The position numbers were made by a program, and so were the translations under genes. The notes beneath the pieces are model-generated. The model was not told the origin of the DNA and searched no databases. It saw only the letters and a program-made list of their open reading frames with translations. Shown piece after piece: positions 367-39,494 of a stretch of DNA of 64,000 nt. Each line of letters begins with the position of its first letter. Within the stretch, counting starts at the first letter, position 1. Origin of the DNA: Candidatus Omnitrophota bacterium (GTDB lineage Bacteria > Omnitrophota > Omnitrophia > Omnitrophales > Aquincolibacteriaceae); contig JAUYMS010000027.1 of NCBI GenBank assembly GCA_030698625.1, positions 39,781-103,780 of the forward strand, given 5' to 3'.

Positions 367-452
367 GTGTGTTGCGCCCTGGAAAGTGTGTAAGTCATTC
401 TAAGTCCTATACAAAGGCTACACGATGACCTGCTTCGTTGTAAAGGGCAGAA

Positions 453-935: not shown

Positions 936-1128
936 CTCACAGCGCTTATTAATCCCCTCTAATTCAAAGTCTGCCCGACACCTACTTCTTTTACAAGTTA
1001 AGAAAGACTTATCTTCTTTTTCTACAGCAGATTAGCTCTCAGACTCAACCGGAATACTAGTGATTTCAAGCTCATTGCAGGCAGGCTGCTAGCGTTCGAT
1101 AGCGGAGTGACTCATTTTGACACAGGGA

Positions 1129-2160: not shown

Positions 2161-2615
2161 GATATAAAGTCCTTCCTTTCATCATTCCAAGTAAAAGTGT
2201 TATGTCCCTTTGCCTTCCCCTCAACAACGGATACGACTAGATACGCGACTCCGGGATAAACGGGCTCACCCTCTGCTGTGGCTGCGCGCTTATCTTCGTC
2301 CGAAAAATAAGCGCCAACATTAATATGGGAGTGGTAGATCACACGAATTTCTTCGCCGCTCTCCCGAGCCTCTTTCTGAATCTCAAGAAGCTCTCTCGGA
2401 TCAATAAAATAAGCTGCCTTGGCGTCTCTCTTGAAGATCTCGGGATCCTTCTGATGATAATCATCCTGAACATTCCTGCACGGCCTTAGCTTCGTCATGT
2501 TCCCGACCTGTGATTTGGGTCCAAGAATCATTCCACAGCATTCATTCGGATACTCTGCTTCTGCCTGCTGAATAATTTGTTTGAGAAAATTTTCCGAAAC
2601 TTCTACCGTGCTCAT
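2157..2615 (-). CDS. JAMM/MPN+ metalloprotease (Mec+-like)
   Basis: 152 aa. JAMM motif E...HSHINVGAYFSDED matches HxHx7Sx2D, with an upstream conserved Glu (EYPNECCG). 4-bp overlaps with both neighbours. Confidence 0.75.
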   Translation of the reverse strand: MSTVEVSENFLKQIIQQAEAEYPNECCGMILGPKSQVGNMTKLRPCRNVQDDYHQKDPEIFKRDAKAAYFIDPRELLEIQKEARESGEEIRVIYHSHINVGAYFSDEDKRAATAEGEPVYPGVAYLVVSVVEGKAKGHNTFTWNDERKDFIS

Positions 2616-6531: not shown

Positions 6532-6679
6532 GCGGTTCTATGCTCCCTTAACCAGGTAATCATTTCAAGTGATCGCTGCCGCGACGGATCCTGCCGCAAT
6601 GAAGGGAATTATAGGGAGACTTTTAAGTATGATCAAGGAAGTATTCTATAGTCCCTTTCTTGCGTTTCTCCGGCTTACC

Positions 6680-22576: not shown

Positions 22577-22710
22577 GTCGCCGAATCTCCGATACTATAA
22601 AGCCAGGCACTGTAAACCATGCAGGCAAGCCCCGCGACAAATGCGGCAAAGTATAAGTACTTCATCGCTTCAATCCACGGTTTTGACGGTCTCGTTTTTG
22701 CTTCTCTCAT
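22573..22710 (-). CDS. Small single-TM protein (45 aa) in the RnfG/NqrC position
   Basis: Translates to MREAKTRPSKPWIEAMKYLYFAAFVAGLACMVYSAWLYSIGDSAT. Its ATG overlaps the RnfD-like stop as ATGA, and its TGA overlaps the GTG start of the next gene as GTGA. Confidence 0.4.
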   Translation of the reverse strand: MREAKTRPSKPWIEAMKYLYFAAFVAGLACMVYSAWLYSIGDSAT

Positions 22711-23525
22711 AGAACCTTTGCATTTCTTGGTCGCACGATCTGATCGAACCAAGGCGTCAGTCCGTTCATAACCAGGACAGCCATAAAAATGCCGTCACTA
22801 TGTCGCATGACCTCGCCCAATAAAACCGCCATGACGGCGGTGCCCATCGCAAAAAAGCGCAAACCTCGCCGTGTCTGGGGTGTCGTCACAGGATCCGTGA
22901 TCAAAAAAAAGGCCGCGAACAGAGCACCTCCTCCGATATCCGTAGACAGAAGCGCATAGACGCCTAAAAAAATTACCGGAACTTCCCAGCGAATGAGCCT
23001 AAACCCGACAAGTATGCCCGCTCCCAGAAATAGGCCGACGGGTGACCCGAAACCGATGGCTCCCCCTTCGATGGCCAGCGGAAAACTCACCTGCATCAGC
23101 ACCCGGCCCGCAACAGCCGCATGAAGCGGATAAGCCCCCGGCCCTCCAAACATTTCCTTAATTAGAATAACCGCGATAGCGCTCGTCAGAGCTGCCGCCC
23201 AGGAGGGTGCGGAAGCCGGTAGCATTAAGGCTACTAGCAGTCCCGTTAATACGGCATCACCGCTCTTCAGGCTGATATTTTTGCCGCGGGCCGTCCGCGC
23301 CAGGACTTCCGAAACCAGGGATGCAGAAACAGCCACGCCGATGAGACGCAGGCTATTCCAGGCATTCGCCGCGACAGCTGCGCCTAGAACAGGCGTCAGG
23401 GCCAGGGCAGTAAGCCAGAGAATCGACGGCACGGAGCGCTCAGTTCGTATATGGGGTGCTAAACCCTGTTTATAAGAGGTCACCATAAGAAGCTCTAAAC
23501 TATCAGCAATAAATGAATTGTGCAA
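22707..23525 (-). CDS. RnfD/NqrB-like membrane subunit (short, 272 aa)
   Basis: FFLITDPVTTP matches the conserved RnfD/NqrB ...FF(M)xTDPVT motif. Polytopic and Gly-rich. Confidence 0.6.
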   Translation of the reverse strand: MHNSFIADSLELLMVTSYKQGLAPHIRTERSVPSILWLTALALTPVLGAAVAANAWNSLRLIGVAVSASLVSEVLARTARGKNISLKSGDAVLTGLLVALMLPASAPSWAAALTSAIAVILIKEMFGGPGAYPLHAAVAGRVLMQVSFPLAIEGGAIGFGSPVGLFLGAGILVGFRLIRWEVPVIFLGVYALLSTDIGGGALFAAFFLITDPVTTPQTRRGLRFFAMGTAVMAVLLGEVMRHSDGIFMAVLVMNGLTPWFDQIVRPRNAKVL

Positions 23526-23573
23526 CTATGCGCCGGATAGACAACATATCTATAGATGTAGGGGCTCCGGGCC

Positions 23574-23612
23574 TCCTTGCAATGCCTAGGGGCGTCGGGT
23601 AGACTCTGTTCT
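23574..23612 (+). promoter_or_regulatory. Candidate sigma70-type promoter for the PilZ-acyltransferase operon
   Basis: TTGCAA-N17-TAGACT in the 194-bp divergent intergenic region, about 110 bp upstream of the ATG at 23720. Confidence 0.25.
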
Positions 23613-23719
23613 GTAAGGAATGATACCTTTGAGACTTATATTGGGATGGTCTTTGGGAGCCGATAACTGCTTCAGCCTACATTACTTAAGCGCTTTATAA
23701 ATAACATCATATTCTGATC

Positions 23720-24973
23720 ATGAAAATTAAATCGTCTTTAAACTGGGAACTGGGAATTGGCATACTGGAAGACAACGTATTTGGCCAATGCCCAAAACCT
23801 CAGGAATTGCCTTTCGCAGACCGGCGGCGGGAGCCGAGAATTTCCATGAGTCTCCCGATTCGCTACCGCTCCCAAGCACGCCCCGGCCCCAATTGGCTAG
23901 CTGCCCAGTCAATAGATATATCGCGCAACGGGGTTCGTCTGGCTCTGGAGCAACCCATAAAAGTGGGTAACCGCATTGAACTCGATGTGAAGCTGCCCGA
24001 GACCGACGGCACAATACGAATGGAGGGCATCATTGTCTGGGCCAATCCTTCCTCAAACGGCAAAGATATAACCGAGTGCGGGGTCGCCTTTCAGAATCTA
24101 CGCAAACTCACACAGAAGGAAAAAATAATCTATTTCATGGCGGACAAGATCTGCAGCCTTGCTCACCGCCATGCCACGGATCTCGTTGCCACACCCGCGA
24201 ATTCATTGGATGAGATCAAGGAAGCGTATGAGCTTGTGTACCGTGAATATCTTGCCCGCGGCTACTGTGAAGCCAACCCTTCCAAAATGCACTACAACGC
24301 GCATTGCATGTTTCCCGATTCCCGGGTATTCACTCTGCGTCGCGACGGCCGTCTCCTCGGAACACTGTCACTCATTCCGGATTCGCCCTGCGGCATACCT
24401 CTTGAACACCTCTTTCCCCAGGAGGTCGCACGATTAAGACGCCCGGGACGGCGGATTGCCGAGGTAAGCCTACTTGCTCTCAACGGTGAGTATTTTAAGA
24501 AAAAGACTTTTTCCCTTACAGATTTCCAGAAACTCACCGGATCATTTAGGCTCTTCAAGGTCATGTTCGATTACGCACGTTTTGAGGCGCGTGTGACGGA
24601 TATCGTCATCGGAATGCACCCAAAGCATGAGGAGCTGTATCGCTACCTGTCTTTCGAAACGATCGGTCCCACAAAATCCTATTCCAATGCCTGCGGCAAA
24701 CCGGCTCTCCCTATGTGGATGGACATTCCGCGCAACATAAGCACGGTTTCACTCAAACACGGTGCAGGCTATTACTTCCTCAAGGATGTCATCACGCAGG
24801 ATATCCTGGCCCGTCAATTCCGCTGGAACACCGAAGCCGTACGCGACCTTTTACTTCGACGTCCGCCGCTTTGGAATATGATGCCGATTGCCGGTTGGCA
24901 ATATCTTAAACACTGCTATCCGGGTCTCCATTCCACCAAGCCCCAAACCCCGACTCACGGCTCAAAAACGTAA
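23720..24973 (+). CDS. PilZ domain fused to N-acyl amino acid synthase-like (FeeM/OlsB-type GNAT) domain
   Basis: N-terminus has RxxxR (RREPR) followed by D-I-S-R-N-G (DxSxxG), the PilZ c-di-GMP-binding signature. The C-terminal ~270 aa resemble the FeeM/OlsB-type N-acyltransferase fold (YREYLARGY...FTLRRDGRLLGTLSLIPD...AEVSLLAL). Confidence 0.55.
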   Translation: MKIKSSLNWELGIGILEDNVFGQCPKPQELPFADRRREPRISMSLPIRYRSQARPGPNWLAAQSIDISRNGVRLALEQPIKVGNRIELDVKLPETDGTIRMEGIIVWANPSSNGKDITECGVAFQNLRKLTQKEKIIYFMADKICSLAHRHATDLVATPANSLDEIKEAYELVYREYLARGYCEANPSKMHYNAHCMFPDSRVFTLRRDGRLLGTLSLIPDSPCGIPLEHLFPQEVARLRRPGRRIAEVSLLALNGEYFKKKTFSLTDFQKLTGSFRLFKVMFDYARFEARVTDIVIGMHPKHEELYRYLSFETIGPTKSYSNACGKPALPMWMDIPRNISTVSLKHGAGYYFLKDVITQDILARQFRWNTEAVRDLLLRRPPLWNMMPIAGWQYLKHCYPGLHSTKPQTPTHGSKT

Positions 24974-24975
24974 TC

Positions 24976-26070
24976 ATGAAAAACGATATTCACGAAATCA
25001 TCCGGAAAGGGATACTCGCACCATCCGCAGATAATCTCCAACCGTGGCTTTTCAAAATCGGAGCGGACAACCTTGAGCTGTGGCTTGACGCAAAGCGCTC
25101 GGAAAATTTCTGCGACGCCGGGTATCTAGCCCCTTACATCTCGATCGGTGCCGTCATTGAGAATATGCGAATCGCCGCTGCCGATCGCGGCTATCGCATG
25201 ACTTGTTCCTATTTCCCGGATAAGAAAAATAAGACAAGGGTCGTCACAATCTCCTTCGAAAAGGGAGAAAAGGAGACATCCCCTCTTTTGCCGTTCATAG
25301 GCAAGCGACGCACAAACCGGAAGTTTTACGCTTCACGCCCGAGTGTCGCTCCCGCCGCAAAAGCATCGCTTGAGGAAACAGTATGCGAAGAAGGATTCCG
25401 ACTACACTGGGTAGCGAAAGATGAATCGCGCTACCAAGATCTGTGTAGTATGATCGGTGATGCCGATCAGTTGCGTTTTGAAAACCAAAGACTACACCGA
25501 GAATTTAACAATATATTGCGTTTTACTAAACCGGCGATAAGCGGTGGTGACGGCTTAGACATTAAGACCCTGGAGTCGGGTCCCACGGGGCCCCTTCTTT
25601 TTAAGTTGATGGGCCAGTGGTCCCGGCAAAAGTTTCTGAATAATCTCGGTATTAGCCGGGTCTTCAATGCGTACGCAAAGATCCAGATGCAGTCATCGGC
25701 AGCTGCGGGCCTGATCACGGCCCCCTCTCATGCCCCTGAGGATTATGTTCGCGGGGGGGAGCTCATGGAGCGCCTCTGGCTTGAGGCCACCCGGCAGGGG
25801 CTTTCCCTGCAACCGATGGAAGCACTACCCATTTTTATCATTAACCGGCAACTGCGCAATTTAAGCGATTTTTCAGAAGCTCAAAAGGCGACCATCGAAC
25901 GGCTGACGGCAAATTTCTTTTCGCTCTTCGGTATTAACAATAAGGACGGGCTCATTTTTCTATTCCGCATTGGTCACGCCAAGCCCACCACCACACAGGC
26001 CCTCAGACGCCCGATCGATTCCTTTCTGATGAACAGCGCCGATACAGGAGTTAAATATGTCGTCTCCTGA
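24976..26070 (+). CDS. Two-half-domain nitroreductase-family FMN protein
   Basis: The N-terminal half has the nitroreductase signature APSADNLQPWLF; the second half has RRTNRKF (RRxxRxF). 364 aa; starts 3 bp after the upstream stop. Confidence 0.6.
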   Translation: MKNDIHEIIRKGILAPSADNLQPWLFKIGADNLELWLDAKRSENFCDAGYLAPYISIGAVIENMRIAAADRGYRMTCSYFPDKKNKTRVVTISFEKGEKETSPLLPFIGKRRTNRKFYASRPSVAPAAKASLEETVCEEGFRLHWVAKDESRYQDLCSMIGDADQLRFENQRLHREFNNILRFTKPAISGGDGLDIKTLESGPTGPLLFKLMGQWSRQKFLNNLGISRVFNAYAKIQMQSSAAAGLITAPSHAPEDYVRGGELMERLWLEATRQGLSLQPMEALPIFIINRQLRNLSDFSEAQKATIERLTANFFSLFGINNKDGLIFLFRIGHAKPTTTQALRRPIDSFLMNSADTGVKYVVS

Positions 26071-27010
26071 GTTTGATTACTCCCAAGCTTTCGACCGCAA
26101 CATCGGTTGGCTCACGAAACACGAGCAAGAAAAACTGCGCGGCATCTGCGTCGCTATCGCAGGCCTCGGCGGCGCCGGTGGGTTTCAAGCGCAGGCCCTG
26201 GCCCGTCTCGGCGTCGGGAAATACCGGATTGCCGATCCGGACACTTTTGAAATATCCAACCGAAATCGCCAGATCGGCGCCACGGAGTCAACAGTGGGCC
26301 ACCCCAAGGCCACAACGATTCGTGACATGATTCTTGCCATCAACCCAACCGCCTCAGTAGAAATTTATCCGGAGTGTTTCAGCACGGCCAATGCCGGCGC
26401 AATCCTGGAAAGCGCTGATGTGGCCATAGATGGCATCGACTTCTTCTCTATCGACGATAAAATTCTATTTTTTCAGGAATGCCGAAAACGCGGTATCCCA
26501 GCCATCACCTCTTGCCCTTTGGGCTTCGGCGCATCTCTGATGGTCTTTTCTCCGCAGGGCATGACGTTTGAGGATTACTTTAATTTCCGGCCGGACATGA
26601 GTGAGAAGGATAAGAGAAACAGTTTCGCCTTCGGGCTTTCTCCTTCGCCCCTTTGTTTGAGCTATATGAATCCTGACGCCTTCGGGTCCGACAACAAGCG
26701 CGCCGCGAGCGTTGTTCCGGGACTCATGCTGGTGGGCGCGCTAACAGCGACAGAAGTGGTAAAGCTCGTTACGCATATGGCCCGGCCGAATTCCTGCCCA
26801 CATGTCTATCAGATTGATTTAATGACGCAGCGCGTCAGCAAGAAATATTATCGCTGGGGAATGAGAGGCCCTTGGATGCGCTGTAAGAAAGCGCTGGCCC
26901 TCAAATGGGTGGAGTACAAGCGCCGTAGGCATGCGTCAAATCCAAGCCTTGCGGCTTCGCCGCCGGATGAACATAAGCAAACGGGGAGTGCTCGCCATGC
27001 GGTTTCTTAA
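26057..27010 (+). CDS. ThiF/MoeB-family E1-like adenylyltransferase (non-canonical, no C-terminal CxxC)
   Basis: Rossmann motif IAGLGGAGGF and E1-like ...ADPDTFEISNRNRQ. 14-bp overlap with the upstream nitroreductase gene. Confidence 0.7.
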   Translation: MSSPEFDYSQAFDRNIGWLTKHEQEKLRGICVAIAGLGGAGGFQAQALARLGVGKYRIADPDTFEISNRNRQIGATESTVGHPKATTIRDMILAINPTASVEIYPECFSTANAGAILESADVAIDGIDFFSIDDKILFFQECRKRGIPAITSCPLGFGASLMVFSPQGMTFEDYFNFRPDMSEKDKRNSFAFGLSPSPLCLSYMNPDAFGSDNKRAASVVPGLMLVGALTATEVVKLVTHMARPNSCPHVYQIDLMTQRVSKKYYRWGMRGPWMRCKKALALKWVEYKRRRHASNPSLAASPPDEHKQTGSARHAVS

Positions 27011-27764
27011 ACCAGTCTTGATGGCCTGGGCCGTCGTGTTGAGCCTGATTCCCACACTCAAAGCAGAAACCACGCCGCCGGGCGCTACGGAACTCCTACG
27101 CCGAATGGACCAGGTCCTCCGAGGTGATTCTCACGACATGACCGTAACGCTTGATGTTATAACAGCCCGCTGGGAACGCCATTACAAAATCCGGGTTCGC
27201 ATGCAAGGAATCGACTATGCGTTCGCGCGAGTCTTGGAACCTTCAAAAACCGAGGGACAAGGTTTCTTGAGAATCAAGGCACGTCTCTGGCAATATTTAC
27301 CGACGGCGGAACGCACTATTCTCATACCTCCTTCCTTGATGCTTGATGATTTCATGGGCAGCGATTTTTCCAATGATGACTTCGTAAAGCTTAGCTACTT
27401 GCCGCGGGACTACGACGCTAAGATTGTTGCCGAAGATACAATCAGTGGTTTTGAAGTGCTCGGACTGGAGCTTATTCCTCGCCCTGATGCCCCTGTCACA
27501 TACGGCAAACTTGAAGTTTGGCTGCGAAAGACCGATGCGGCACCCGTACGCTGGCTCTTTTATAATGAAAAAATGCTCTTGATAAGAACTCTGCATTACT
27601 CTGAATTTAAACAATTCGGAACCCACGATATCCCAACCGTATGGCGCATGGAGAATCATCTCGAAGCCGGTCACGAGACCACCGTTACCGTGCTGTCGGC
27701 GGCCTTCGACACTCCGATCGCCCAATCCCAATTCACACGAGAAAACCTAGAAAAGTATCCCTGA
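26997..27764 (+). CDS. LolA-like periplasmic lipoprotein-sorting/lipid-carrier family protein
   Basis: Start at ATG 26997 gives signal peptide MRFLKPVLMAWAVVLSLIPTLKAE. Size and composition fit LolA-like proteins of the kind often found next to FtsX-type ABC transporters. Overlaps the ThiF gene by 14 bp. Confidence 0.5.
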   Translation: MRFLKPVLMAWAVVLSLIPTLKAETTPPGATELLRRMDQVLRGDSHDMTVTLDVITARWERHYKIRVRMQGIDYAFARVLEPSKTEGQGFLRIKARLWQYLPTAERTILIPPSLMLDDFMGSDFSNDDFVKLSYLPRDYDAKIVAEDTISGFEVLGLELIPRPDAPVTYGKLEVWLRKTDAAPVRWLFYNEKMLLIRTLHYSEFKQFGTHDIPTVWRMENHLEAGHETTVTVLSAAFDTPIAQSQFTRENLEKYP

Positions 27765-28987
27765 TGTTTCTCTTCAAGCTCGCGTTTCTTAATATCACCC
27801 GGAATGTTCGCAGGTCCCTAATCACTGTGATGGCTGTCGGCGTCGGTCTCGCCGCGCTTATCTTCCTGTGGGGATTTAATGACGGCACAATCGAGCAGAT
27901 GCGCGAGAACGTCATACGCCTTTTTACGGGCCATGTGCAGATTCATGCTCGCGGCTTCGAAAAATCGCTCTCCCCTGAGCTCTTTCTTGCACAGAGAGAA
28001 AAGGTTCTCATCGATGTTGCGGCAAACCCGGCCGTCTCACGAATCACCGAACGCGTCAAATGCGAAGCGCTTGTCGGCACGAGTGAGAACTCGCGCGGAG
28101 TTCTTTTGGTCGGAGTAGACCCCGAACGTGAAAGACAGATTACCGATCTCGAGGACCACATTGAGGCGGGACGCTATTTGGAGCCGGACGGAAATCGCGA
28201 GATACTAGTCGGAGACCGACTGGCCAAAAAAATAGGCCTCGATCTGGATGACAAAGTCGTCGTGATGACGCAGGCGATGGACGGGACTTTGGCCGGTTAT
28301 GCCTATCGCGTCAAAGGCATCTTTCACACAGGGAGCCAGCAGATTGACGAGGTTTCGGTTTATATCACGCTGGCATCCGCCCAGGAATTACTCGGGCTTG
28401 GGGAAGATGTTCATGAGATTGTGATCCAGCTTTCAGACCGCAAGGGAATAGAACCGTTTCTTGAGTGGGCGAAGATCAGCCTCGGTAGCGAAAAATACGA
28501 GGTTTTGAAGTGGAATGAGCTTATCCCCGAAGTTGATCAATGGACGCAGTGGGCCGAAGCAGTCATTGGAACTATTTTGATCGCCGTCATGGTCGTTATC
28601 GGGGTCAGCATTATGAACACGGTGCTCATGTCCATATATGAAAGGACCCGCGAACTCGGCGTCATGATGGCCATCGGCACAAGCCCCTCCCAGATCGTAC
28701 AACTCATACTGCTTGAGACGCTAATTCTGGAAGGTCTCGGTATTATTCTGGGTTTAGTGGGCGGGTACCTCGTTACAATTTATTTCGGAGAAGTCGGAAT
28801 CTCATTCCACGGCGTCGAAGAGGCCTTTTCGCGTTCTTATATGAGCACGGTTGTCTTCACTAAAGTGGAATGGCCACATGTGGTTCAGTCTGTTATTACG
28901 CTAATTCTCTTAACATCATTCATCGGACTCTATCCGGCCTGGAAGGCATCCCGCATGGAGCCGGTTAAAGCCATCTATTATTCTTAA
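27764..28987 (+). CDS. ABC transporter permease, FtsX/MacB/LolCE type
   Basis: N-terminal TM (ITRNVRRSLITVMAVGVGLAALIF), a ~230-aa periplasmic domain, then three C-terminal TMs (FtsX fold). Its ATG overlaps the LolA-like TGA as TGATG. Confidence 0.75.
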   Translation: MFLFKLAFLNITRNVRRSLITVMAVGVGLAALIFLWGFNDGTIEQMRENVIRLFTGHVQIHARGFEKSLSPELFLAQREKVLIDVAANPAVSRITERVKCEALVGTSENSRGVLLVGVDPERERQITDLEDHIEAGRYLEPDGNREILVGDRLAKKIGLDLDDKVVVMTQAMDGTLAGYAYRVKGIFHTGSQQIDEVSVYITLASAQELLGLGEDVHEIVIQLSDRKGIEPFLEWAKISLGSEKYEVLKWNELIPEVDQWTQWAEAVIGTILIAVMVVIGVSIMNTVLMSIYERTRELGVMMAIGTSPSQIVQLILLETLILEGLGIILGLVGGYLVTIYFGEVGISFHGVEEAFSRSYMSTVVFTKVEWPHVVQSVITLILLTSFIGLYPAWKASRMEPVKAIYYS

Positions 28988-28992
28988 ATATC

Positions 28993-29685
28993 ATGTTCAT
29001 AAAAGCCGAAAATATATCGAAGGTGTTTCAGGACCGCTCGCTCCCAGTCACTGCCCTCAAAGCAGTGAGCGTCGATATTGAGGAGGGGTCCTTTACGGTG
29101 CTCTGCGGGCCGTCGGGTTCCGGCAAGACAACACTCCTAAATCTGCTGGGTTGCCTTGATCGCCCTTCCGGAGGCCGAGTCTTTCTCAGAGGAGAAGAAA
29201 TCAGCGCCCTGTCTCAGGAAAAGCTCACGCGCTACCGGCTGCGGAAAATTGGCTTTGTTTTTCCTGATTTTAATCTCATTCCGACTCTGAGCGCCGTAGA
29301 AAATGTAGAGTATGTCCTTTGGCTTCAGGGCATCTCCGGAACAGAACGCCGCAAGCGCGCCGCCGCCATTTGCGAACGCTTTGGCATCGGCGCTCTAATT
29401 CACCGCCGCCCCCGTGAACTCAGCCGCGGACAACAGCAGCGTGTTGCGGTGGCCCGTGCCATCGTTCACAAACCAGAATTGGTTCTTGGCGATGAATTGA
29501 CCTCGAACCTAGATCATAAGACCGGGTCGGAGCTCATGGGTTTCTTAAAAGAATTAAATCGGGAAGAAAAAATGACTTTTATTTATGCCACCCATGACCC
29601 CGTCATGATCGAACGCGCCGGACGCGTGATTCGAATGCAGGACGGCGAAGTCGTCAGCGATGAAAAGACACGCGTTCATGCTTAG
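28993..29685 (+). CDS. ABC transporter ATP-binding protein (LolD/MacB-NBD-like)
   Basis: Walker A GPSGSGKTT, signature LSRGQQQRVAVARA, Walker B LVLGDELTSNLD. Confidence 0.85.
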   Translation: MFIKAENISKVFQDRSLPVTALKAVSVDIEEGSFTVLCGPSGSGKTTLLNLLGCLDRPSGGRVFLRGEEISALSQEKLTRYRLRKIGFVFPDFNLIPTLSAVENVEYVLWLQGISGTERRKRAAAICERFGIGALIHRRPRELSRGQQQRVAVARAIVHKPELVLGDELTSNLDHKTGSELMGFLKELNREEKMTFIYATHDPVMIERAGRVIRMQDGEVVSDEKTRVHA

Positions 29686-30910
29686 GAAGTTCCTAGCCGG
29701 GTATCTAGCCGCAGCATTACTATTGCCGGTTTGCGCGTTTGCCGAGGAAACGACCCAACCGCCGCTGGAAGTCAAACGGCCCTCTTTGAAAATTCAATTT
29801 TCCGGTTACGCCAAGAGCCAGAGTTTCTTTACGCAAACCAGCGGATTCTCTCCTGAGTTTGTCGACAACCCCGCACTCCTCGAACAGGACGAGAACAGCT
29901 TCAATGCTCTGCAGCGATTAAGACTAAAAATTAAAGCGTTGTATAAAATCTCCGATGAGACACGCGTGAGCGCTAACATCCATTATGACCACCAGGCCAA
30001 TTTCGGCACTTTCATTTCAACCGGAGACGCGCGTATCTCGAGAAAACAGGCGGAGGACCGTCAATTTCTTGACTTGAGTCAGACATTGATCGAGAACGAC
30101 GACACTGACTACCAGCATCGGTTGTACCGAGCCAGCGTTTTGCTTGAAACGCGTTATGCCGACGTAGAGATCGGCCGCCAGCAAATCCCTTGGGGAGTCG
30201 GTCACTTCTTCACGCCGACGGATGTCTTTAATTCCTTCAACCCCACACAAATCGAGCTCGAAGAGCGTGACGGCGTGGATGCCCTGCGCCTTAGATCACC
30301 GGCCATTCGAGGCGTTCAGGGCGAGTTTATTTATACGCCTCAGGGACGCCAGCTTCACCCGAGCCGTTTCATGGGCCGCCTATCGGGCGATTTTCGTGGT
30401 TATGAGATCGGAATTCTTGGCGGGCATATCAAGCGAGATAATGCAGTCGGTTTTGACTTCGCCGGTAATATCGGAGATTCATCGGTGCGCGGGGAACTTC
30501 TTTTCAGAAACGCCGACACTGAAAAGGATTATTTGAAATTTACGGTAAACGCTGACTACAATTTCCCTTTCAATCTCTACGGCCTTATCGAATACCACTT
30601 CAACGGCCAGGGACGTCGCGATACAGCTTCTTATCAACTTGATCGGCTCGTCCGCGGGGATATTCGTGAATTGGGCCGCAATTACGGAGCCGTCATGCTC
30701 GGGTATGATGTCACAGCACTGATTCGTTTGGAGAATAGGCTCATCATGAATTTAGATGACGCGAGCCTTTTTCTAAGACCGGAGGTCCAGTACGAGCTCA
30801 GTTCGGATTTGTTGTTTACCCTCGCGAGTCAGTTATTCCTGGGCTCCAACACCGACGAGTACGGAAGGCCGAAGAATCTCTTCTTCGGAGAGTTGACCTA
30901 CTCCTTCTAA
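29660..30910 (+). CDS. Outer-membrane beta-barrel protein (unknown family)
   Basis: Signal peptide ...AALLLPVCAFAEE, alternating beta-strand pattern rich in Y/F/G, C-terminal GELTYSF ending in Phe. Overlaps the ABC ATPase gene by 26 bp. Confidence 0.5.
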   Translation: MKRHAFMLRKFLAGYLAAALLLPVCAFAEETTQPPLEVKRPSLKIQFSGYAKSQSFFTQTSGFSPEFVDNPALLEQDENSFNALQRLRLKIKALYKISDETRVSANIHYDHQANFGTFISTGDARISRKQAEDRQFLDLSQTLIENDDTDYQHRLYRASVLLETRYADVEIGRQQIPWGVGHFFTPTDVFNSFNPTQIELEERDGVDALRLRSPAIRGVQGEFIYTPQGRQLHPSRFMGRLSGDFRGYEIGILGGHIKRDNAVGFDFAGNIGDSSVRGELLFRNADTEKDYLKFTVNADYNFPFNLYGLIEYHFNGQGRRDTASYQLDRLVRGDIRELGRNYGAVMLGYDVTALIRLENRLIMNLDDASLFLRPEVQYELSSDLLFTLASQLFLGSNTDEYGRPKNLFFGELTYSF

Positions 30911-32248
30911 AGCATATCGAATGAGATCTGCCATCGGGCGTTTTGCCGGGCATACATAACTACAGTTTCCGCAACCGATACAAGCTGAAATTCCCCAATC
31001 GGAAGCCATTTCAAAAAGGTCCGCCTCTGCCGCTTGTGTGATCATAACCGGCGATATCTCCACCGGGCAGGCACTGACGCAATCCCCGCAATGAATGCAG
31101 GCATGCACTTCTTCCGGCTTTGTCACTTCATGAGGCAGCGCAAGAATGGCCTCGGTTTGCGCTATGACGCAGGCATCCCAGTCTCGCTGAGCAATGCCTT
31201 TCATTGGGCCGCCCATGAGAATCTTCTCCGGCCCCCGCATCAGCCCACGGCAACTCTTCACGGCATCCTGAAAAGAAATACCAAAGGGCAACCAAATGTT
31301 ACGGGGTTCAATGATGCATTCTCCGGCCACCGTAACCACCCTTTCATATAAGGGTTTGTGGTACCGTACAGCTTCATAGACCGAAAACAGAGTGGCCGTA
31401 TCTTCAATCGCTATGCCCGCTTGATGAGCGAGCTCAAGATAACCGTCTCGCGCGCTCTCGGCGAATCTCAGTTGCATGAGCGCGCCGGCATTCCGAATTA
31501 AATCGATTCCAAGTACGTCGCGAATGAGCGGGAGGGTTTCCGACTGCGGATACCTTTCGGATAATAACGTGACTTTGAAGTGCTTCCACTTGAGGAAGAA
31601 GATCTTGCTCCGCAGGAGTTCCGCGATTTCGGACTTGCTCGCATCAAGAGCAATCACGACCCGCTCCGCCCCTATGAGGCTTCGCATGCTTTCGGCGCCG
31701 CGGAGGATCTCGACAGGATGCGACATCAGGAGTGCGTGGGCCGAAGTAACGTAGGGGTCGGTTTCGCATCCGTTGACAATCAGTGTCCGGAGTTCGCCTT
31801 GCGAAATGGGCTCGTACTTTGCATGCAGCGGATTTCCTGCTTCCATGCTCATCAAACCGCTCTCGCGAAAGATCGCAAATAAATTACTGCGGCTCAGGAG
31901 CTCCCAACCTTCCCTTTCCGAATTGACCTCCGGTGACCACCCGAAGGTTTCATCACCGCTAATCTCGACGGCAAGACCCGTGCCCCCCTTTGAATCGGGA
32001 AATCGATCAATCCGAGTGACCTCCCCGGGCATGCTGGCGTGGGACGGAACAGCATCGGCATCGACGGGCATCGCGACCACTTGGCCGGCTATCACAACAG
32101 TGCCCACTTCGACACAGACTTCCTGCCGGTAAGGCTCGCGCTCCCGGATGAGAATACGCACTTTCGCAGGACGGGTCCTGCTGCGCTTGATAGCCCAAGA
32201 GACCAAGCTTGACTCTTTCTTCGACTCAAGCGCGAGCCCGCCGATCAT
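30833..32248 (-). CDS. RnfC-like electron-transfer protein with two [4Fe-4S] motifs (paralog with a degenerate NADH site)
   Basis: IVNGCETDPYVT (compare RnfC INAAECEPYIT), MGGPMKG (compare RnfC GGPLMG), and CIHCGDCVSACP plus CIGCGNCSYVCP ferredoxin motifs. The GGAGFPT NADH motif is not conserved. Confidence 0.6.
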   Translation of the reverse strand: MIGGLALESKKESSLVSWAIKRSRTRPAKVRILIREREPYRQEVCVEVGTVVIAGQVVAMPVDADAVPSHASMPGEVTRIDRFPDSKGGTGLAVEISGDETFGWSPEVNSEREGWELLSRSNLFAIFRESGLMSMEAGNPLHAKYEPISQGELRTLIVNGCETDPYVTSAHALLMSHPVEILRGAESMRSLIGAERVVIALDASKSEIAELLRSKIFFLKWKHFKVTLLSERYPQSETLPLIRDVLGIDLIRNAGALMQLRFAESARDGYLELAHQAGIAIEDTATLFSVYEAVRYHKPLYERVVTVAGECIIEPRNIWLPFGISFQDAVKSCRGLMRGPEKILMGGPMKGIAQRDWDACVIAQTEAILALPHEVTKPEEVHACIHCGDCVSACPVEISPVMITQAAEADLFEMASDWGISACIGCGNCSYVCPAKRPMADLIRYALEGVGQLSEEEILRPSVLVGVGAQE

Positions 32249-34160: not shown

Positions 34161-34943
34161 TTAAACCGGCAGGCTTGGAACGGAATAAATCTGGTCAACT
34201 TGTATCCGTTCTTGAAAAATTTCCTTCAACCGTCCATACCTGCATGTATCCACGTCGAGGTCATCCATTTCAGGCAGGGATCCGAGAACAGGTACACCGG
34301 AGAGCTCGTGAATGACTTTTGGGTTGGTGATTTCAGCCAATGAGACATTCGTTTTGGCCATACGATTGAAAATTACACCGCGCACTTCAAAACCGCGGAT
34401 CACTGCAGCATCGATTGTCAAAAGCGTGTGGTTGATCGCTCCGAGCCCCCCTTTTGAAACAATGAGAAGGGGAAGCTGAAATTCACGGACTAAGTTCGCG
34501 ACAAAATAGTCTTTGGAAAACGGCACGAGTAAGCCGCCGATCCCTTCCACAATGATAAAATCGTAGTTTTTCTGCAATTCTCCGAACGATCTTCGAATCT
34601 GCGGCAGGTCGACCTCGCGCTTCTCCAAAACCGCGGCAACGCTTGGGGCGAGGGCGTGACGGTATCGCACAGGACTGGTTAAAGGCGGGTACTCATTCTC
34701 GGCCGCCTCTAAGAGATAGGCGCTATCATGACAGATCAGACGTTTGCCAAATTCCATACAGCCCGTTCCTACGGGCTTCATGACACCCACCTTCATCCCC
34801 CGGGATTTCAATGCCATGGCCAAACCGGCAGCCACGACGGTTTTTCCGACTCCTGTATCGGTTCCAGTAATAAAAATTCCCGGCTTATACGCAGGCATAC
34901 GCCCCGCCTTTCTCTTTAACCGTCGCCTCGATAATCGACGCAT
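34161..34943 (-). CDS. bioD: Dethiobiotin synthetase
   Basis: P-loop GTDTGVGKT and conserved BioD core. Confidence 0.85.
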   Translation of the reverse strand: MRRLSRRRLKRKAGRMPAYKPGIFITGTDTGVGKTVVAAGLAMALKSRGMKVGVMKPVGTGCMEFGKRLICHDSAYLLEAAENEYPPLTSPVRYRHALAPSVAAVLEKREVDLPQIRRSFGELQKNYDFIIVEGIGGLLVPFSKDYFVANLVREFQLPLLIVSKGGLGAINHTLLTIDAAVIRGFEVRGVIFNRMAKTNVSLAEITNPKVIHELSGVPVLGSLPEMDDLDVDTCRYGRLKEIFQERIQVDQIYSVPSLPV

Positions 34944-36273
34944 AGGTTATGTCCAACAAATCGCCTAACTCATCTATCGTCATTGCAAGCGGGGGCATTA
35001 ACACCACAACTGCGCCCAACGGCCGAATAATTGCCCCCTTTTCACGGGCTTTGAGAATCACCTGATGGCCGATCTGCTCTTCAGCAGCAAACGGGGCCTT
35101 TGCCGCCTTGTTGCGAACGAGTTCAATCCCCACCATAAATCCTGCCTGCCGCACATCCCCCACCGTCTCAAGCACGGAGAAATTTTTGAGTCTTTCGGTC
35201 AGAAATCGAATCTTCGGTTGCAATGCCTCAAGAACGCGGTTCTTTTCAAACAGTGCCAGATTCGCTAGTGCCACACGGCAAGCAAGCGGATTGGCTGTGT
35301 ATGTATGGCCGTGAAAGAACGTCTTGTACTCCCCATACTCGCCCAGGAAAGCCTCGTACACCGCTTCGGTGGCAAGAGTTGCTGCCAGAGGCATATAGCC
35401 CCCGGTAATCCCCTTGGCAAGCGCCATCAAGTCAGGGGTAATACCTTCGTGTTCACTCGCAAACATCGCACCCGTTCGTCCAAAACCCGTGGCGACTTCG
35501 TCAAAAATCAAAAGCACATTGTATTTGCGCGCCAAGTCTCGGGCTCCTGAGAGATATCCGGCGGGCTGATCAATCATACCTCCGGCCCCCTGAATAACAG
35601 GTTCCATGATGAGGGCGGCAATCTCTTCGTGATGGGCGCCGAGCACCTCTTCCATCTTCACAAGCGCTTCTCTGCGTACCTGCTCCGGATCATCGCCGGT
35701 CGGCCAGCGGTAGCGGTAAGGTGTCGGCACCGTATAGGTTTTAAATAATAACGGATGAAAAATCTCGTGAAAGAGATCAATGCCGCCGACACTCACTGAT
35801 CCTAGAGTATCTCCGTGATAAGCCAACGACAACTTAGCAAATTTAGTTTTTGAAGGTTTCCCTTTATGCCGCCAATACTGGAGCGCCATCTTGACGGCCA
35901 CTTCCACTGCGGCAGAGCCGGAATCGGAATAGAAGACGCGAGAGAGTCCGGGAGGAGCTATCGAAATAAGTTTTTCGGCCAGCTCGATCGCCGGAACATT
36001 TGAAAGCCCGAGGAAAGTGGAGTGAGCAACCTGCCCAAGCTGATCCACTATGGCTTGATCCAGCTCCGGCACTTGATGTCCGTGCACGTTACACCAAAGC
36101 GAAGAGACGCCGTCGAGGTACTTCCGACCCCGCACATCTTCAAGATAAACACCGCGAGCCCGCTCAATGACGAGCATCTCATCACGGGCCCAGTCTCTCA
36201 TTTGTGTAAACGGATGCCAAAGGTAGCGCTTATCTTTCGCCTGTAAGGATTCGAATCTCGACTGTGCTTGCAT
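34885..36273 (-). CDS. bioA: Adenosylmethionine-8-amino-7-oxononanoate aminotransferase
   Basis: Class III aminotransferase with PLP-Lys region (FDEVATGFGRTG); located in the bio cluster. Confidence 0.85.
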   Translation of the reverse strand: MQAQSRFESLQAKDKRYLWHPFTQMRDWARDEMLVIERARGVYLEDVRGRKYLDGVSSLWCNVHGHQVPELDQAIVDQLGQVAHSTFLGLSNVPAIELAEKLISIAPPGLSRVFYSDSGSAAVEVAVKMALQYWRHKGKPSKTKFAKLSLAYHGDTLGSVSVGGIDLFHEIFHPLLFKTYTVPTPYRYRWPTGDDPEQVRREALVKMEEVLGAHHEEIAALIMEPVIQGAGGMIDQPAGYLSGARDLARKYNVLLIFDEVATGFGRTGAMFASEHEGITPDLMALAKGITGGYMPLAATLATEAVYEAFLGEYGEYKTFFHGHTYTANPLACRVALANLALFEKNRVLEALQPKIRFLTERLKNFSVLETVGDVRQAGFMVGIELVRNKAAKAPFAAEEQIGHQVILKAREKGAIIRPLGAVVVLMPPLAMTIDELGDLLDITYASIIEATVKEKGGAYACV

Positions 36274-36293: not shown

Positions 36294-37070
36294 TTAAAAA
36301 CTAACGACAACTTGATTATCATCTTCCCCGATGAGACAACGGAGACGGTTCTTGCCTTCGCGCTTTGCCTGATAAAGCGCCAGGTCTGCTCTCACGAGAA
36401 ATTCCGTCATGGTCTCTCCGAGACGGTAGCTGGTCAGGCCCGCGCTAAAAGTCGTATCGAGCCATTCTTGGACATTGATTTGAATTCGCGCCAAAAATTT
36501 TTCGGAGTTCACCAGATTTGTATGCGGGAGTAGAATGCAAAATTCGTCACCCCCATAGCGCCCCAGGGAATCGCTGGAACGGATTGCTTTTAGAATATGC
36601 TGAGAAAACTTCTTTAACAGTTCGTCTCCGCGAGGATGCCCGTAAGTGTCATTGAATGATTTAAAGTTATCGAGATCAATTAAACAAATGCTAAGAGGAA
36701 ATTTATACCGCCCTGCCCGCCGCATTTCCTCATCCAGAGTCTCTTCGAATGCAGAGCGATTAAAAGCCTGCGTCAATCCATCGTACATAGACTGAATTTC
36801 CAAACGCCGCCACCGGCCTTTCAATCGATTGAAGACAATCTGCTGTGCAACTTGAAAGACGGCGAAAGCCACAAGCAAGCTGAGCAAAACGTAAGGCACC
36901 CAATCTTGGCGTATAAGGGGTTTGCCGGCCGGAAGCAGAAGGTAGAGCAATCCCGCGAGGGCCGCAAAGGTGAACACAGCCGAGCATTTCTGAATAAAGC
37001 TCTGAGAGTCAAAAAGCCCGGCTATTTCTGCGGTAGCTCGGGTTGCTCGCCTTGGCTGCGTTTTTGTCAT
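36294..37070 (-). CDS. Membrane-anchored GGDEF diguanylate cyclase
   Basis: Two N-terminal TM helices, then a GGDEF domain with GRYGGDEF active site and DxLT-type motif (YDGLTQAFNR). Confidence 0.8.
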   Translation of the reverse strand: MTKTQPRRATRATAEIAGLFDSQSFIQKCSAVFTFAALAGLLYLLLPAGKPLIRQDWVPYVLLSLLVAFAVFQVAQQIVFNRLKGRWRRLEIQSMYDGLTQAFNRSAFEETLDEEMRRAGRYKFPLSICLIDLDNFKSFNDTYGHPRGDELLKKFSQHILKAIRSSDSLGRYGGDEFCILLPHTNLVNSEKFLARIQINVQEWLDTTFSAGLTSYRLGETMTEFLVRADLALYQAKREGKNRLRCLIGEDDNQVVVSF

Positions 37071-38326
37071 TGGACAGTTTCCTCCACAAATGGATTTAAC
37101 GGGTCTATTTTATCAGAAAAGAAGTGCTTTTTAACCCTAAACAACGCTTTAATAACATATTCAATATCCCGGTCTTGATGCGCTGCACTTACCGTAAGTC
37201 TAAGTCTGGCCTTGCCTTTCGGCACTGTCGGATAGCGCACAGCCGGTACAAGAATCCCCTCTCGAAGCAGGGCCTCAGCCAACGCTAAGGCCGATTCCTC
37301 TCCTCCGACGACGATTGGGATGATCGGGGAGCTTGCCGGCGCAAGGGAATATCCCGCCTTCTTCAGCCCCGCATGAACCTTGTGAATGTTCTTCCAGAGC
37401 CTCATGCGAATTTCCGGTTCCTGGTCTACAAGCTCCAATGCTCGAGAAGCTGCAGCACACAATAACGGCGGCAATGAGGTATCGAAGATGAACGGCCGAG
37501 AGAAGTTGATGAGATAATCGATCATGGCTGCTGAACCCGCGGCAAATCCACCCAGACAACCGATAGATTTAGAAAGAGTTCCCATGGTGACATCAATGCG
37601 GGATGTCAGATTACTGTCTTCAGCGGCTCCCCGTCCTCGTGATCCAAGCACCCCAATGCCGTGAGCATCATCAATCACCAGAAGACCGTCATGTTTGCCT
37701 TTGAGGCGAACCAATTCCTCCAAATCAGCAACATCCCCATCCATGCTAAAAACGCTGTCGGAAACAAGGATCGTCCGCGCCCCTTTATTGCGCTGGAGGA
37801 TTTCGTCGCAGCGGCGATAATTCTTGTGCGGAAAAACTCGCACCGTCGCTTGTGACAGCCTCGCGGCATCAATGGCTGAAGCGTGGCACAATTTATCCAT
37901 GACGATGACGTCGCCCTTACCCGCTAGCGCCGTCAAGATTCCCAGATTCGCTAAATAGCCCGAAGAATAAAGCAGTGCTGCGGCCGTGCCTTTGAAACGA
38001 GCTATTTCCTCCTCCAAACGCGCGTGCCAGTCGGTCGATCCGGAAATTAGGCGCGCGGCGCCTGAGCCGACACCATGCGTTTGGGCGGTTGTGACGGCCG
38101 CGTCAATAACGCGCGGATCGCGAGACAAGCCGAGATAATCGTTACCGCAAAATAAGAGAACCTCGCGGCCCTCAAATACGGCACGAACGCCGTCGATTTT
38201 CTTTAGCGTTTTTAAACGCCGGTAGAGGTGAGTGTCTTTCAGTTCAGAAATTTCTTTTTCCAAGAAAGTGTTCATTGCTATTGGCCTAAACCTTTTGCAG
38301 CACGACGGCCGCAACATGTCCCCCAA
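37067..38326 (-). CDS. bioF: 8-amino-7-oxononanoate synthase
   Basis: Class II aminotransferase / alpha-oxoamine synthase with PLP-Lys in GTLSKS; located in the bio cluster. Confidence 0.8.
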   Translation of the reverse strand: MGDMLRPSCCKRFRPIAMNTFLEKEISELKDTHLYRRLKTLKKIDGVRAVFEGREVLLFCGNDYLGLSRDPRVIDAAVTTAQTHGVGSGAARLISGSTDWHARLEEEIARFKGTAAALLYSSGYLANLGILTALAGKGDVIVMDKLCHASAIDAARLSQATVRVFPHKNYRRCDEILQRNKGARTILVSDSVFSMDGDVADLEELVRLKGKHDGLLVIDDAHGIGVLGSRGRGAAEDSNLTSRIDVTMGTLSKSIGCLGGFAAGSAAMIDYLINFSRPFIFDTSLPPLLCAAASRALELVDQEPEIRMRLWKNIHKVHAGLKKAGYSLAPASSPIIPIVVGGEESALALAEALLREGILVPAVRYPTVPKGKARLRLTVSAAHQDRDIEYVIKALFRVKKHFFSDKIDPLNPFVEETVQ

Positions 38327-39494
38327 ATCCCATGGAATAAGAAAGTACCGTATTCACTTCGGCTGCTCGCGCCGACCCGCCCGTGTAATCAAGATCGCAT
38401 TCGGGATCCGCTTTTTCGAGACCCACGGTTTGCGGAATAAAACCCTCTTCCATGGCCAGAAGCGACGCGACTATTTCCACTGCCCCGGATGCACCTAGCA
38501 TATGCCCAGTCATTGCTTTTATCGAGCTCATCGGAATCTCATACGCCTTTGCCCCGAACGCGTCCTTGAGTTGATTCGTTTCATAGACATCGCCCGCCCG
38601 GGTTGCTGTACCATGCAAACTGATATAATCCACGTCATCCCTTTTGAGTTCGGCCGTTCCCAGTGCCCGTTGAATTGTCCGGGATAAAGTCTTCCCCTTG
38701 GGATCAAACTTCACGGGATGATGCGAATCCGACCCGTAAGCCGACGCCAAGAGTTCACCATAGATCGTCGCTTTTCTCGCACGCGCCGTCTCAGGCGTTT
38801 CTAAAAAGACAATTCCTGCGCCTTCTCCGACCATAAAACCGTCCCGCTGCCTGTCGAAAGGACGCATGCGCTCTTTGGCCAAAGCACCCATCTTGTAATA
38901 ACCGGCAAGCATAAGAGGGACAATGGAGGCGTCACTTGCCCCCGCAATACAATAATCAACAACTCCACTAGCCACCATCCGTGCCCCCTCAATGACGCTG
39001 ATCGTTCCGGTCGCACACGCTCCCACGTAGCACTTCGCGGGGCCTTTGATCTTCCACCGCCGCGCGATCCATTGCGCCCCGAAGTTTGGCACCGAGTTCG
39101 TGTAAACACGCGCACCTAAAATTGCGCTCGGATTCCTCTGGAGTCTTTCTTTGAAGCGATCGATTGTCGATACGCCTCCCTTGCTCGAACTTACGGAGAT
39201 ACCAATTCGAAACGCGTCTACCTGGTCAGAATCAAAATAGGCATTCCTCATGGCCTCGCTCGCCGCCGCGACGGCATACTGGATAAAGGGATCCAGGACG
39301 TACGTGCCGTGCTCACGGGCATCAAAGTTCTTAACCTCAAAGGCGGTCTTGACCGGGAAAGAACCGGCATCAAATCTCGTGATAGGGGCGGCTCCGCAGA
39401 CGCCGTTACGCAGGGATTCGCGAAAAGCGGTAACGCCTACCCCTATGGGAGAAACCACGCCCATTCCGGAAATAACCACACGACGATTCATCAT
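38286..39494 (-). CDS. Beta-ketoacyl-ACP synthase (KAS I/II-type)
   Basis: Cys-His-His triad context: GACATG (active Cys), HGTAT, GHMLGASG; 402 aa. Confidence 0.8.
   Translation of the reverse strand: MMNRRVVISGMGVVSPIGVGVTAFRESLRNGVCGAAPITRFDAGSFPVKTAFEVKNFDAREHGTYVLDPFIQYAVAAASEAMRNAYFDSDQVDAFRIGISVSSSKGGVSTIDRFKERLQRNPSAILGARVYTNSVPNFGAQWIARRWKIKGPAKCYVGACATGTISVIEGARMVASGVVDYCIAGASDASIVPLMLAGYYKMGALAKERMRPFDRQRDGFMVGEGAGIVFLETPETARARKATIYGELLASAYGSDSHHPVKFDPKGKTLSRTIQRALGTAELKRDDVDYISLHGTATRAGDVYETNQLKDAFGAKAYEIPMSSIKAMTGHMLGASGAVEIVASLLAMEEGFIPQTVGLEKADPECDLDYTGGSARAAEVNTVLSYSMGFGGHVAAVVLQKV

Follow-up and report, generated by a model that had tools for sequence, protein, structure and literature searches.

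A PilZ–FeeM fusion gene heads a conserved operon for a putative acyl-oxazolone pathway in Candidatus Omnitrophota

The PilZ–FeeM gene and its operon

We analyzed a 64,000-nt stretch of DNA from Candidatus Omnitrophota (GenBank assembly GCA_030698625.1, contig JAUYMS010000027.1, positions 39,781 to 103,780 of the forward strand; hereafter, the window) that encodes a fusion of a PilZ domain, a receptor for cyclic dimeric GMP (c-di-GMP), with a FeeM-type synthase of N-acyl amino acids (NAS). The PilZ–FeeM gene is the first of seven genes on the plus strand (23720–30910). Neighboring genes are separated by gaps of 2–5 nt or overlap by 1–26 nt; by this arrangement, the seven genes are a tightly packed, translationally coupled operon. 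The second and third genes encode a nitroreductase-superfamily flavin oxidase (FDO) and a ThiF-like adenylating enzyme, and the remaining four encode candidate components of an envelope exporter (Table 1). The sizes, order and family matches of the first three genes fit an acyl-oxazolone pathway. The reading that we favor, and hold to be rather probable, is that a PilZ-gated NAS heads an operon for the synthesis and export of an acyl-oxazolone lipid, with c-di-GMP gating the first step.

Domain structure of the fusion protein

Both domains score well above the curated Pfam cut-offs: 59.1 bits against 22.5 for PilZ (PF07238, E=5.8e-16), and 120.3 bits against 27 for FeeM (PF21926, E=8.6e-35), where the full profile (positions 1–158) is covered. 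A two-domain assignment at these E-values is far beyond what chance could explain. An initial interpretation made from the DNA alone (the sequence-only reading) had proposed a PilZ domain fused to an NAS-like enzyme, and this proposal is borne out; all peptide strings on which it relied (RREPR, DISRNG, YREYLARGY, FTLRRDGRLLGTLSLIPD and AEVSLLAL) are found in the open reading frame (ORF). A search among 5.8 billion proteins found 64 relatives of the 417-aa protein, about 55 of which have both domains and span 94–98% of the query length. Their source is mostly metagenome-assembled genomes (MAGs) of Candidatus Omnitrophota (Omnitrophica). Residue conservation is given below for an alignment of 27 homologues with 35–58% identity.

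The public gene call for an identical sequence (locus L047, 1871–2998) starts at M43 and yields a protein of 375 aa, in which the RxxxR motif and the conserved N-terminal segment are lost. A GGAG-like sequence is present ahead of M43, and no obvious Shine-Dalgarno sequence is seen at the ATG at 23720. The N-terminal pattern MK..W..GIGILEDNVF (first ~20 residues) is conserved across the homologues, which argues that the ATG at 23720 is the real start. Conservation of the first 33 residues among the homologues led us to reject the M43 start.

The AlphaFold2 model of the whole protein has a predicted local distance difference test score (pLDDT) of 81 and a predicted template modeling score (pTM) of 0.76. 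It comprises a disordered N-terminus that contains RxxxR (residues 1–39), a beta-barrel (46–124), a long connecting helix (133–154), a GNAT-like domain (156–335) and a helical C-terminal extension. A motif similar to the conserved segment of residues 7–20 was found in 35 of the 98 motif-bearing proteins; this segment could serve as a c-di-GMP-responsive latch.

The signature motifs of the PilZ domain, placed by the sequence-only reading in RREPR (residues 36–40) and DISRNG (66–71) about 25 residues apart, were confirmed. The second motif starts 25 residues after R40; spacers in the family have a median of 24. Residues R36, R40 and G71 are invariant in the homologues, S68 is present in at least 90% of them, and position 66 is either D or N. 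The family HMM (hidden Markov model) detects an N-terminal PilZ domain in 91 of 201 collected proteins, and both motifs are kept in 82 of these 91. A degenerate PilZ domain, a concern raised in the same reading, is not what the motifs suggest; they are intact and conserved across homologues.

In whole-protein fold searches PilZ structures were not listed, as the list was filled by GNAT matches; therefore, residues 30–160 were modeled separately. In this model a helix comes after six strands, and its best Foldseek matches are c-di-GMP-bound PilZ domains, with BcsA (4P00) at the top, followed by MotI, VCA0042, Alg44, PA0012, YcgR and MrkH. The RxxxR segment has low pLDDT and is flexible in the AlphaFold2 model, as expected of an apo PilZ domain. 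Binding of c-di-GMP between the RxxxR and DxSxxG motifs is established for PilZ domains in general, and direct control by c-di-GMP is the natural reading because the binding motifs here are intact and conserved. It is quite improbable that the domain has ceased to bind c-di-GMP and acts as a structural or protein-interaction module, as in the PilZ proteins of type IV pili. Non-binding PilZ domains do exist, and 7LKM (PilB–PilZ of Xanthomonas) is among the weak structural matches of the separate model; however, both motifs are (nearly) invariant over the whole identity range of the homologues, the top structural matches are c-di-GMP-bound domains, and the window also encodes a diguanylate cyclase.

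The synthase domain finds its best match in FeeM both by sequence and by structure, and has a GNAT/LuxI-like alpha/beta fold. The putative catalytic glutamate E248 is invariant in the homologues and aligns with the catalytic Glu95 of FeeM. Nas354 cannot do without the counterpart of this residue, Glu103 (the mutagenesis primer reads IAEVS), as the E103A variant is inactive (PMC4897644). The sequence-only reading had likened this domain to FeeM/OlsB-type acyltransferases and had named lack of a GNAT/FeeM-like fold as grounds for giving up the assignment. The domain does align and model as FeeM-type, so that the FeeM part of the assignment stands by both Pfam and fold. The OlsB part does not, as no Pfam match to Acetyltransf_5 (PF13444) was found at E<=0.1, and the domain should be labeled as FeeM-type alone. 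Identity with LuxI-type acyl-homoserine lactone synthases was considered and rejected; these are structural neighbors, yet they fall clearly behind FeeM in the fold searches.

Functions of the downstream genes

Gene 2 matches the FDO half of the NCBIfam Rv1355c family (TrzS; positions 376–718 of 722, E=3.4e-69), the nitroreductase part of the ThiF–nitroreductase didomain family PRK14851 (positions 329–676, E=6.6e-66) and the Acg family (E=3.1e-48). Gene 3 matches PRK08223 (302.6 bits, cut-off 266) and the ThiF part of PRK14851 (positions 19–300, E=5e-65), and the two genes jointly span the full length of PRK14851. All three functions are fused in PRK14852, a 989-residue family named 'hypothetical protein', whose FeeM-like, ThiF and nitroreductase regions match genes 1, 3 and 2, respectively. 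A link of gene 2 to the mycobacterial tyz genes via its Mycobacterium marinum homologue (P0312) was tried and not used, as the neighbor of that homologue is a polyketide synthase gene, not tyz.

The ATP site of the gene 3 product is intact: the GLGGAGG loop, SNRNRQ and D128 align with residues of MoeB, D128 corresponding to MoeB D130. The conserved Asp of ThiF proteins (Asp217 in TrzS) has a described role in the adenylation site (PMC12856293). The nearest solved structures are MoeB, ThiF and TcdA. These neighbors, and the fact that the characterized substrates of the ThiF family are mostly polypeptides or tRNA (bioRxiv 10.1101/2020.06.11.147165), might suggest that the ThiF protein and the nitroreductase act apart from the acyltransferase, modifying a peptide (microcin-like, or like the thiazole/oxazole-modified microcins, TOMM) or a sulfur-carrier protein of the ThiS/MoaD kind. 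We find this very hard to reconcile with the locus. The intergenic gaps, at most 5 nt long, are too short to hold the ORF of a small precursor or carrier; no YcaO, ThiS or MoaD was detected by Pfam or NCBIfam among the seven genes; and the gene 2 product appears to be an FDO of the Acg-like kind by its match to the TrzS family, with fusions to FeeM known from PRK14852 and from a PilZ–FeeM–ThiF protein (P0108).

The two genes that follow the fusion encode a predicted flavin oxidase and ThiF cyclase of the kinds that turn N-acyl amino acids into acyl-oxazolones in characterized systems, and putative export genes come next; synthesis therefore probably does not stop at a lipoamino acid. The sequence-only reading had put lipoamino acid synthesis under direct c-di-GMP control; the control part is supported by the intact, conserved motifs, whereas the lipoamino acid would rather be an intermediate on the way to the product of the oxidase and ThiF genes.

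Of the export genes, the last has a weak identity, with a short DUF1302-like motif. Its product shows weak matches to DUF1302 proteins of related clusters (E=5e-4 and 2e-3) and a sub-threshold match to Pfam DUF1302 (E=0.016), and a counterpart is found at the same position in six related loci (L003, L005, L007, L008, L009 and L011). Exporters also accompany related clusters elsewhere, such as MMPL in another Omnitrophota cluster (L001, described below) and mmpL9 beside tyz in Mycobacterium tuberculosis.

A scan of the cassette for sigma-70 promoters and terminators was uninformative, as the sites are no commoner than in shuffled sequence. No Rfam family reached its gathering score in the window (no tRNA, rRNA or riboswitch), and no Rfam match to a known RNA was seen even at E<=1 upstream of the fusion gene (23450–23800).

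Genomic surroundings

The cassette is flanked by rnfD (22707–23525) and rnfC (30833–32248), both on the minus strand. Because it is inserted between these two genes, it splits the normally contiguous rnf operon. The GGDEF gene of the window (Table 1) sits among biotin-synthesis-like genes, namely a BioD-like gene (34161–34943), a BioA-like aminotransferase gene (34885–36273), a BioF-like gene (37067–38326) and a ketoacyl synthase gene (38286–39494).

Table 1. Features of the PilZ–FeeM locus, with positions in the window.
Feature	Position	Strand	Basis
PilZ–FeeM fusion gene, putative c-di-GMP-gated N-acyl amino acid synthase, operon gene 1	23720..24973	+	ATG-to-stop ORF, 417 aa; Pfam PilZ and FeeM
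Conserved N-terminal segment, residues 7–20, LNWELGIGILEDNV, upstream of RxxxR	23738..23779	+	alignment; predicted helix, pLDDT ~30
PilZ domain PF07238, residues 34–137, six-strand beta-barrel, then long helix (residues 133–154)	23819..24130	+	Pfam
RxxxR motif, R36-R-E-P-R40	23825..23839	+	read from sequence
(D/N)xSxxG motif, D66-I-S68-R-N-G71	23915..23932	+	read from sequence
FeeM-type N-acyl amino acid synthase domain PF21926, residues 168–335; helical C-terminal extension to ~residue 400	24221..24724	+	Pfam
Codon of E248, putative catalytic glutamate, motif RIAEVS	24461..24463	+	alignment to the KLAEV Glu of FeeM
Gene 2: nitroreductase-superfamily flavin oxidase (FDO), Acg-like, 364 aa	24976..26070	+	NCBIfam; PDB Acg 2YMV
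Gene 3: ThiF-like adenylating enzyme, predicted ATP-dependent cyclase, 317 aa	26057..27010	+	Pfam ThiF E=5.7e-43; NCBIfam PRK08223
Gene 4: LolA-like / TP_0789-like periplasmic protein, signal peptide	26997..27764	+	Pfam LolA_like E=3.6e-45; start from public gene call
Gene 5: MacB-type FtsX permease	27764..28987	+	Pfam FtsX and MacB_PCD; start from public gene call
Gene 6: ABC transporter ATPase	28993..29685	+	Pfam ABC_tran E=3.5e-29
Gene 7: probable outer-membrane beta-barrel, 416 aa, signal peptide, C-terminal ...TYSF	29660..30910	+	translation; weak DUF1302-like motif
GGDEF diguanylate cyclase, 257 aa, intact GGDEF	36294..37070	-	Pfam E=1.3e-40

Conservation of the cassette and variation in the family

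The full seven-gene cassette recurs in five other loci (L003, L005, L007, L008 and L009), whose PilZ–FeeM proteins are 42–59% identical to the one described here, and the trio of NAS, FDO and ThiF is conserved in all five. In L008, the PilZ–FeeM gene is divergent from the remaining six genes of the cassette. In L003, L007 and L009, the cassette lies between rnfD and rnfC, as in the window, and PolA is 64–65% identical. In L005 (JGI metagenome 3300014839, 1–8900) it is found just downstream of genes for exosortase EpsH, EpsI, a sugar transferase and a sigma-54 response-regulator activator. Some NASs are genetically linked to PEP-CTERM/exosortase systems, and the setting of L005 recalls such a link. 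The cassette thus holds together in differing surroundings, given the two genomic contexts, rnf in three loci and exosortase genes in the fourth.

Other loci show parts of the cassette. Two tandem PilZ–FeeM genes with a ThiF gene are found in L004/L012, where exporter and nitroreductase genes are on the opposite strand. In Rhodanobacteraceae, distant FeeM-only relatives also adjoin nitroreductase and ThiF genes.

A search with residues 150–417 yielded 2807 relatives at E<=1e-3 among 1.84 billion cluster representatives. About 90 database proteins have the PilZ-then-FeeM order; they come mostly from Omnitrophota MAGs and carry, if any, the NCBI name 'PilZ domain-containing protein'. Further architectures detected by Pfam are PilZ–FeeM–ThiF in P0108 (680 aa), PilZ–PilZ–FeeM in P0080 and P0097 (~510 aa), and FeeM–FeeM in P0149 (585 aa); P0143 has a 230-aa C-terminal extension with no Pfam domain in it. 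Full-length relatives found among the GTDB species representatives are all uncultured MAGs, labeled Omnitrophota, 'uncultured bacterium' or Planctomycetales. The gene 2 product has a 100% identical counterpart at NCBI, encoded at locus tag Q8R76_04395 of a Candidatus Omnitrophota MAG.

These data bear on the alternative that the N-acyl amino acid is itself the final product, an N-acyltyrosine-type biosurfactant or signal like that of Nas354, with the oxidase and ThiF acting elsewhere or on a minor fraction. Nas354 on its own gives a biosurfactant in E. coli (PMC4897644), acyl-tryptophan intermediates of the Trz system build up in the supernatant (PMC12856293), and in L019, L020 and L024 PilZ–FeeM genes occur with LolA-like, MacB or ABC genes and with no ThiF or nitroreductase gene nearby. 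At the present locus, however, genes 1–3 are joined by a 2-nt gap or an overlap, the trio is conserved in at least five divergent genomes, and its functions are fused in PRK14852 (all three) and P0108 (PilZ–FeeM–ThiF). For the cassette described here, we therefore regard the final-product alternative as unlikely, if the most plausible of those considered.

Several points weigh against the reading that we favor. Many PilZ–FeeM homologues form two or three tandem copies with no ThiF or nitroreductase gene within the flanks. Such tandem paralogues are seen in L006/L022, L018, L019, L020, L023, L024 and L028, often with LolA-like, MacB or ABC genes nearby; in L006, YdbH-like, DUF1318 and MBOAT genes are downstream of them. 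In a cluster of another Omnitrophota MAG (L001; GCA_023818545.1, 1253–11530), the PilZ–FeeM gene is followed by genes for a radical SAM protein of the B12-binding type, a further B12-binding-like protein, ThiF, a beta-eliminating lyase, a LolA-like protein, DUF1302 and MMPL. The cluster has no nitroreductase, the B12-radical-SAM enzymes and lyase being in its place, and MMPL replaces MacB; this variant may represent an oxygen-independent tailoring route. The tandem loci and L001 indicate that the oxazolone step is not universal in the PilZ–NAS family. Furthermore, the characterized FDOs use O2 (PMC10404671, PMC12856293), and the present genome, which carries an Rnf complex, may be anaerobic, so that the electron acceptor or the chemistry may differ. 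The synthase was likened to OxzA, TyzA and TrzA via the FeeM fold; the best NCBIfam family of the ThiF gene is named just 'hypothetical protein'; and the assignment of gene 7 as an outer-membrane barrel is weak.

Proposed mechanism

We propose the following model, in which the acyl-oxazolone lipid is the product of the operon. The N-terminal PilZ domain would bind c-di-GMP, supplied by enzymes such as the GGDEF protein encoded in the window, with the flexible RxxxR segment on one side and the barrel face that bears DxSxxG on the other. By analogy with BcsA, binding could order the N-terminal segment, including the helix of residues 7–20, and thereby alter how active the attached NAS is. An activating effect is more likely, given the analogy with BcsA and Alg44, so that c-di-GMP would switch the committed step on. 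The FeeM-type domain would link an amino acid, most likely of the aromatic kind, to a fatty acyl group taken from acyl-CoA or acyl-ACP (acyl carrier protein). The ThiF enzyme could then adenylate the carboxylate and cyclize the N-acyl amino acid, and the flavin oxidase would desaturate the C-alpha/C-beta bond to give an acyl-oxazolone, as in the OxzAB, TyzACB and TrzAS systems. Finally, the LolA-like carrier, the MacB-type ABC transporter and the barrel (genes 4–7) may export the lipid, either as far as the outer membrane or onto the cell surface.

The domain identities, the conservation of motifs, fold and operon, and the occurrence of fused forms elsewhere are observed. From these we predict the binding of c-di-GMP, which way regulation runs, the substrates, an oxazolone as the product and its export. 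The proposal as a whole is put forward tentatively: in Omnitrophota, an acyl-oxazolone pathway hard-wired to its own envelope exporter would have its committed step gated directly by c-di-GMP. We give it somewhat less than an even chance.

Acyl-oxazolones were discovered in 2020–21 and occur in M. tuberculosis. If the proposal is true, this would be the first oxazolone pathway with a known regulatory input, the PilZ domain would allosterically control a soluble small-molecule biosynthetic enzyme, and oxazolone lipids would be tied to a sessile or surface-associated program. PilZ control of a soluble synthase of lipids or small molecules, an idea raised in 2016, would widen the known actions of c-di-GMP. 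The combination of a sensor-fused first enzyme and a dedicated exporter also provides a testable hypothesis on the timing and destination of oxazolone lipids, whose physiological role has been called 'a major unresolved question' (PMC12856293).

Comparison with known systems

Enzyme-fused PilZ domains are few, and those understood best control polysaccharide synthases. In BcsA and Alg44 the PilZ domain is attached to or lies within a biosynthetic machine that it gates upon c-di-GMP binding, and the PilZ domain of BcsA is the best structural match of the one described here. These are membrane polysaccharide synthases, whereas the partner here is a soluble small-molecule acyltransferase and PilZ is N-terminal. 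Fusions to acyltransferases go unmentioned in the PilZ survey by Galperin and Chou.

The closest described proteins are Nas343 and Nas354, cloned from a biofilm metagenome and shown to produce N-acyltyrosine (Thies et al. 2016, Sci Rep 6:27035; PMC4897644). Like the present protein, they combine a FeeM-like (type-I) NAS and a PilZ domain in one polypeptide of ~400 aa with the catalytic motif IAEVS, and Nas354 alone yields a biosurfactant in E. coli. Regulation of such NAS–PilZ fusions by c-di-GMP was proposed, and only proposed, by the same authors (PMC4897644). The domain order is reversed: the NAS and PilZ domains occupy residues 1–200 and 279–394 in Nas354, whereas here PilZ (34–137) precedes FeeM (168–335). 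As no Nas354-type relative with a C-terminal PilZ domain was found among the 150 best representatives of the family, the two orders probably arose as independent fusions. The genes of Nas343 and Nas354 are presumably outside any biosynthetic operon, according to the authors (PMC4897644), while the gene described here heads a seven-gene operon. The sequence-only reading knew of no description of this architecture; that claim of novelty was overstated, since NAS–PilZ fusions were published in 2016 (PMC4897644) and the same domain order as here occurs commonly in Omnitrophota. The coupling of a PilZ-gated NAS to an acyl-oxazolone pathway and a dedicated exporter, however, appears not to have been described so far.

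FeeM itself (PDB 2G0B) shares the fold and the catalytic Glu; it lacks a regulatory domain, and its acyl donor is acyl-ACP. NasP provides a precedent for an NAS that a nucleotide second messenger activates directly (cited in PMC4897644); NasP senses cAMP, whereas the fusion here is a predicted c-di-GMP sensor.

Three oxazolone systems provide the models for genes 1–3. OxzA, an N-acyltransferase, and OxzB, a ThiF–nitroreductase didomain protein, make tyrazolones and phenazolones by N-acylation of Tyr or Phe followed by ATP-dependent cyclization and oxidation (de Rond, Asay & Moore, bioRxiv 10.1101/2020.06.11.147165). In Pseudoalteromonas rubra and other Proteobacteria, as here, the N-acyltransferase gene is immediately upstream of the ThiF and nitroreductase functions, and the predicted chemistry is the same. 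OxzB is a single didomain protein in contrast to the two genes here, of which the FDO gene comes first and the ThiF gene second. Neither a PilZ domain on OxzA nor an exporter linked to the Oxz system is reported, and the hosts of that system belong to a different phylum from Omnitrophota.

The split M. tuberculosis Tyz system (Rv2336/Rv2338c/Rv2337c for TyzA/TyzB/TyzC) was shown to follow the same route and includes TyzA, which has a FeeM-like fold with FeeM as its closest structural homologue, the 318-aa ThiF protein TyzB, and the 372-aa Acg-like FDO TyzC, with mmpL9 adjacent (Grigg et al., PMC10404671). The genes here share this split arrangement, and their products are of nearly the same size, 317 aa for ThiF and 364 aa for FDO. 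Both clusters have a lipid exporter beside them, mmpL9 at tyz and, putatively, the MacB-type ABC transporter here. TrzA and TrzS (Rv1356c and Rv1355c) constitute the same type of pathway, leading to tryptazolones (Kleetz et al., PMC12856293); gene 2 resembles the FDO half of the Rv1355c family, and acyl-tryptophan intermediates of this system accumulate in the supernatant. OxzA, TyzA and TrzA are all FeeM-like by structure, with low mutual sequence identity (PMC10404671).

The papers on OxzAB, TyzACB and TrzAS make no mention of PilZ or c-di-GMP, and a full-text literature search for oxazolone together with c-di-GMP returned nothing relevant. TyzA and TrzA have no reported sensory domain, tyzA is divergently transcribed, and the hosts are aerobic actinobacteria in which O2 is the established electron acceptor.

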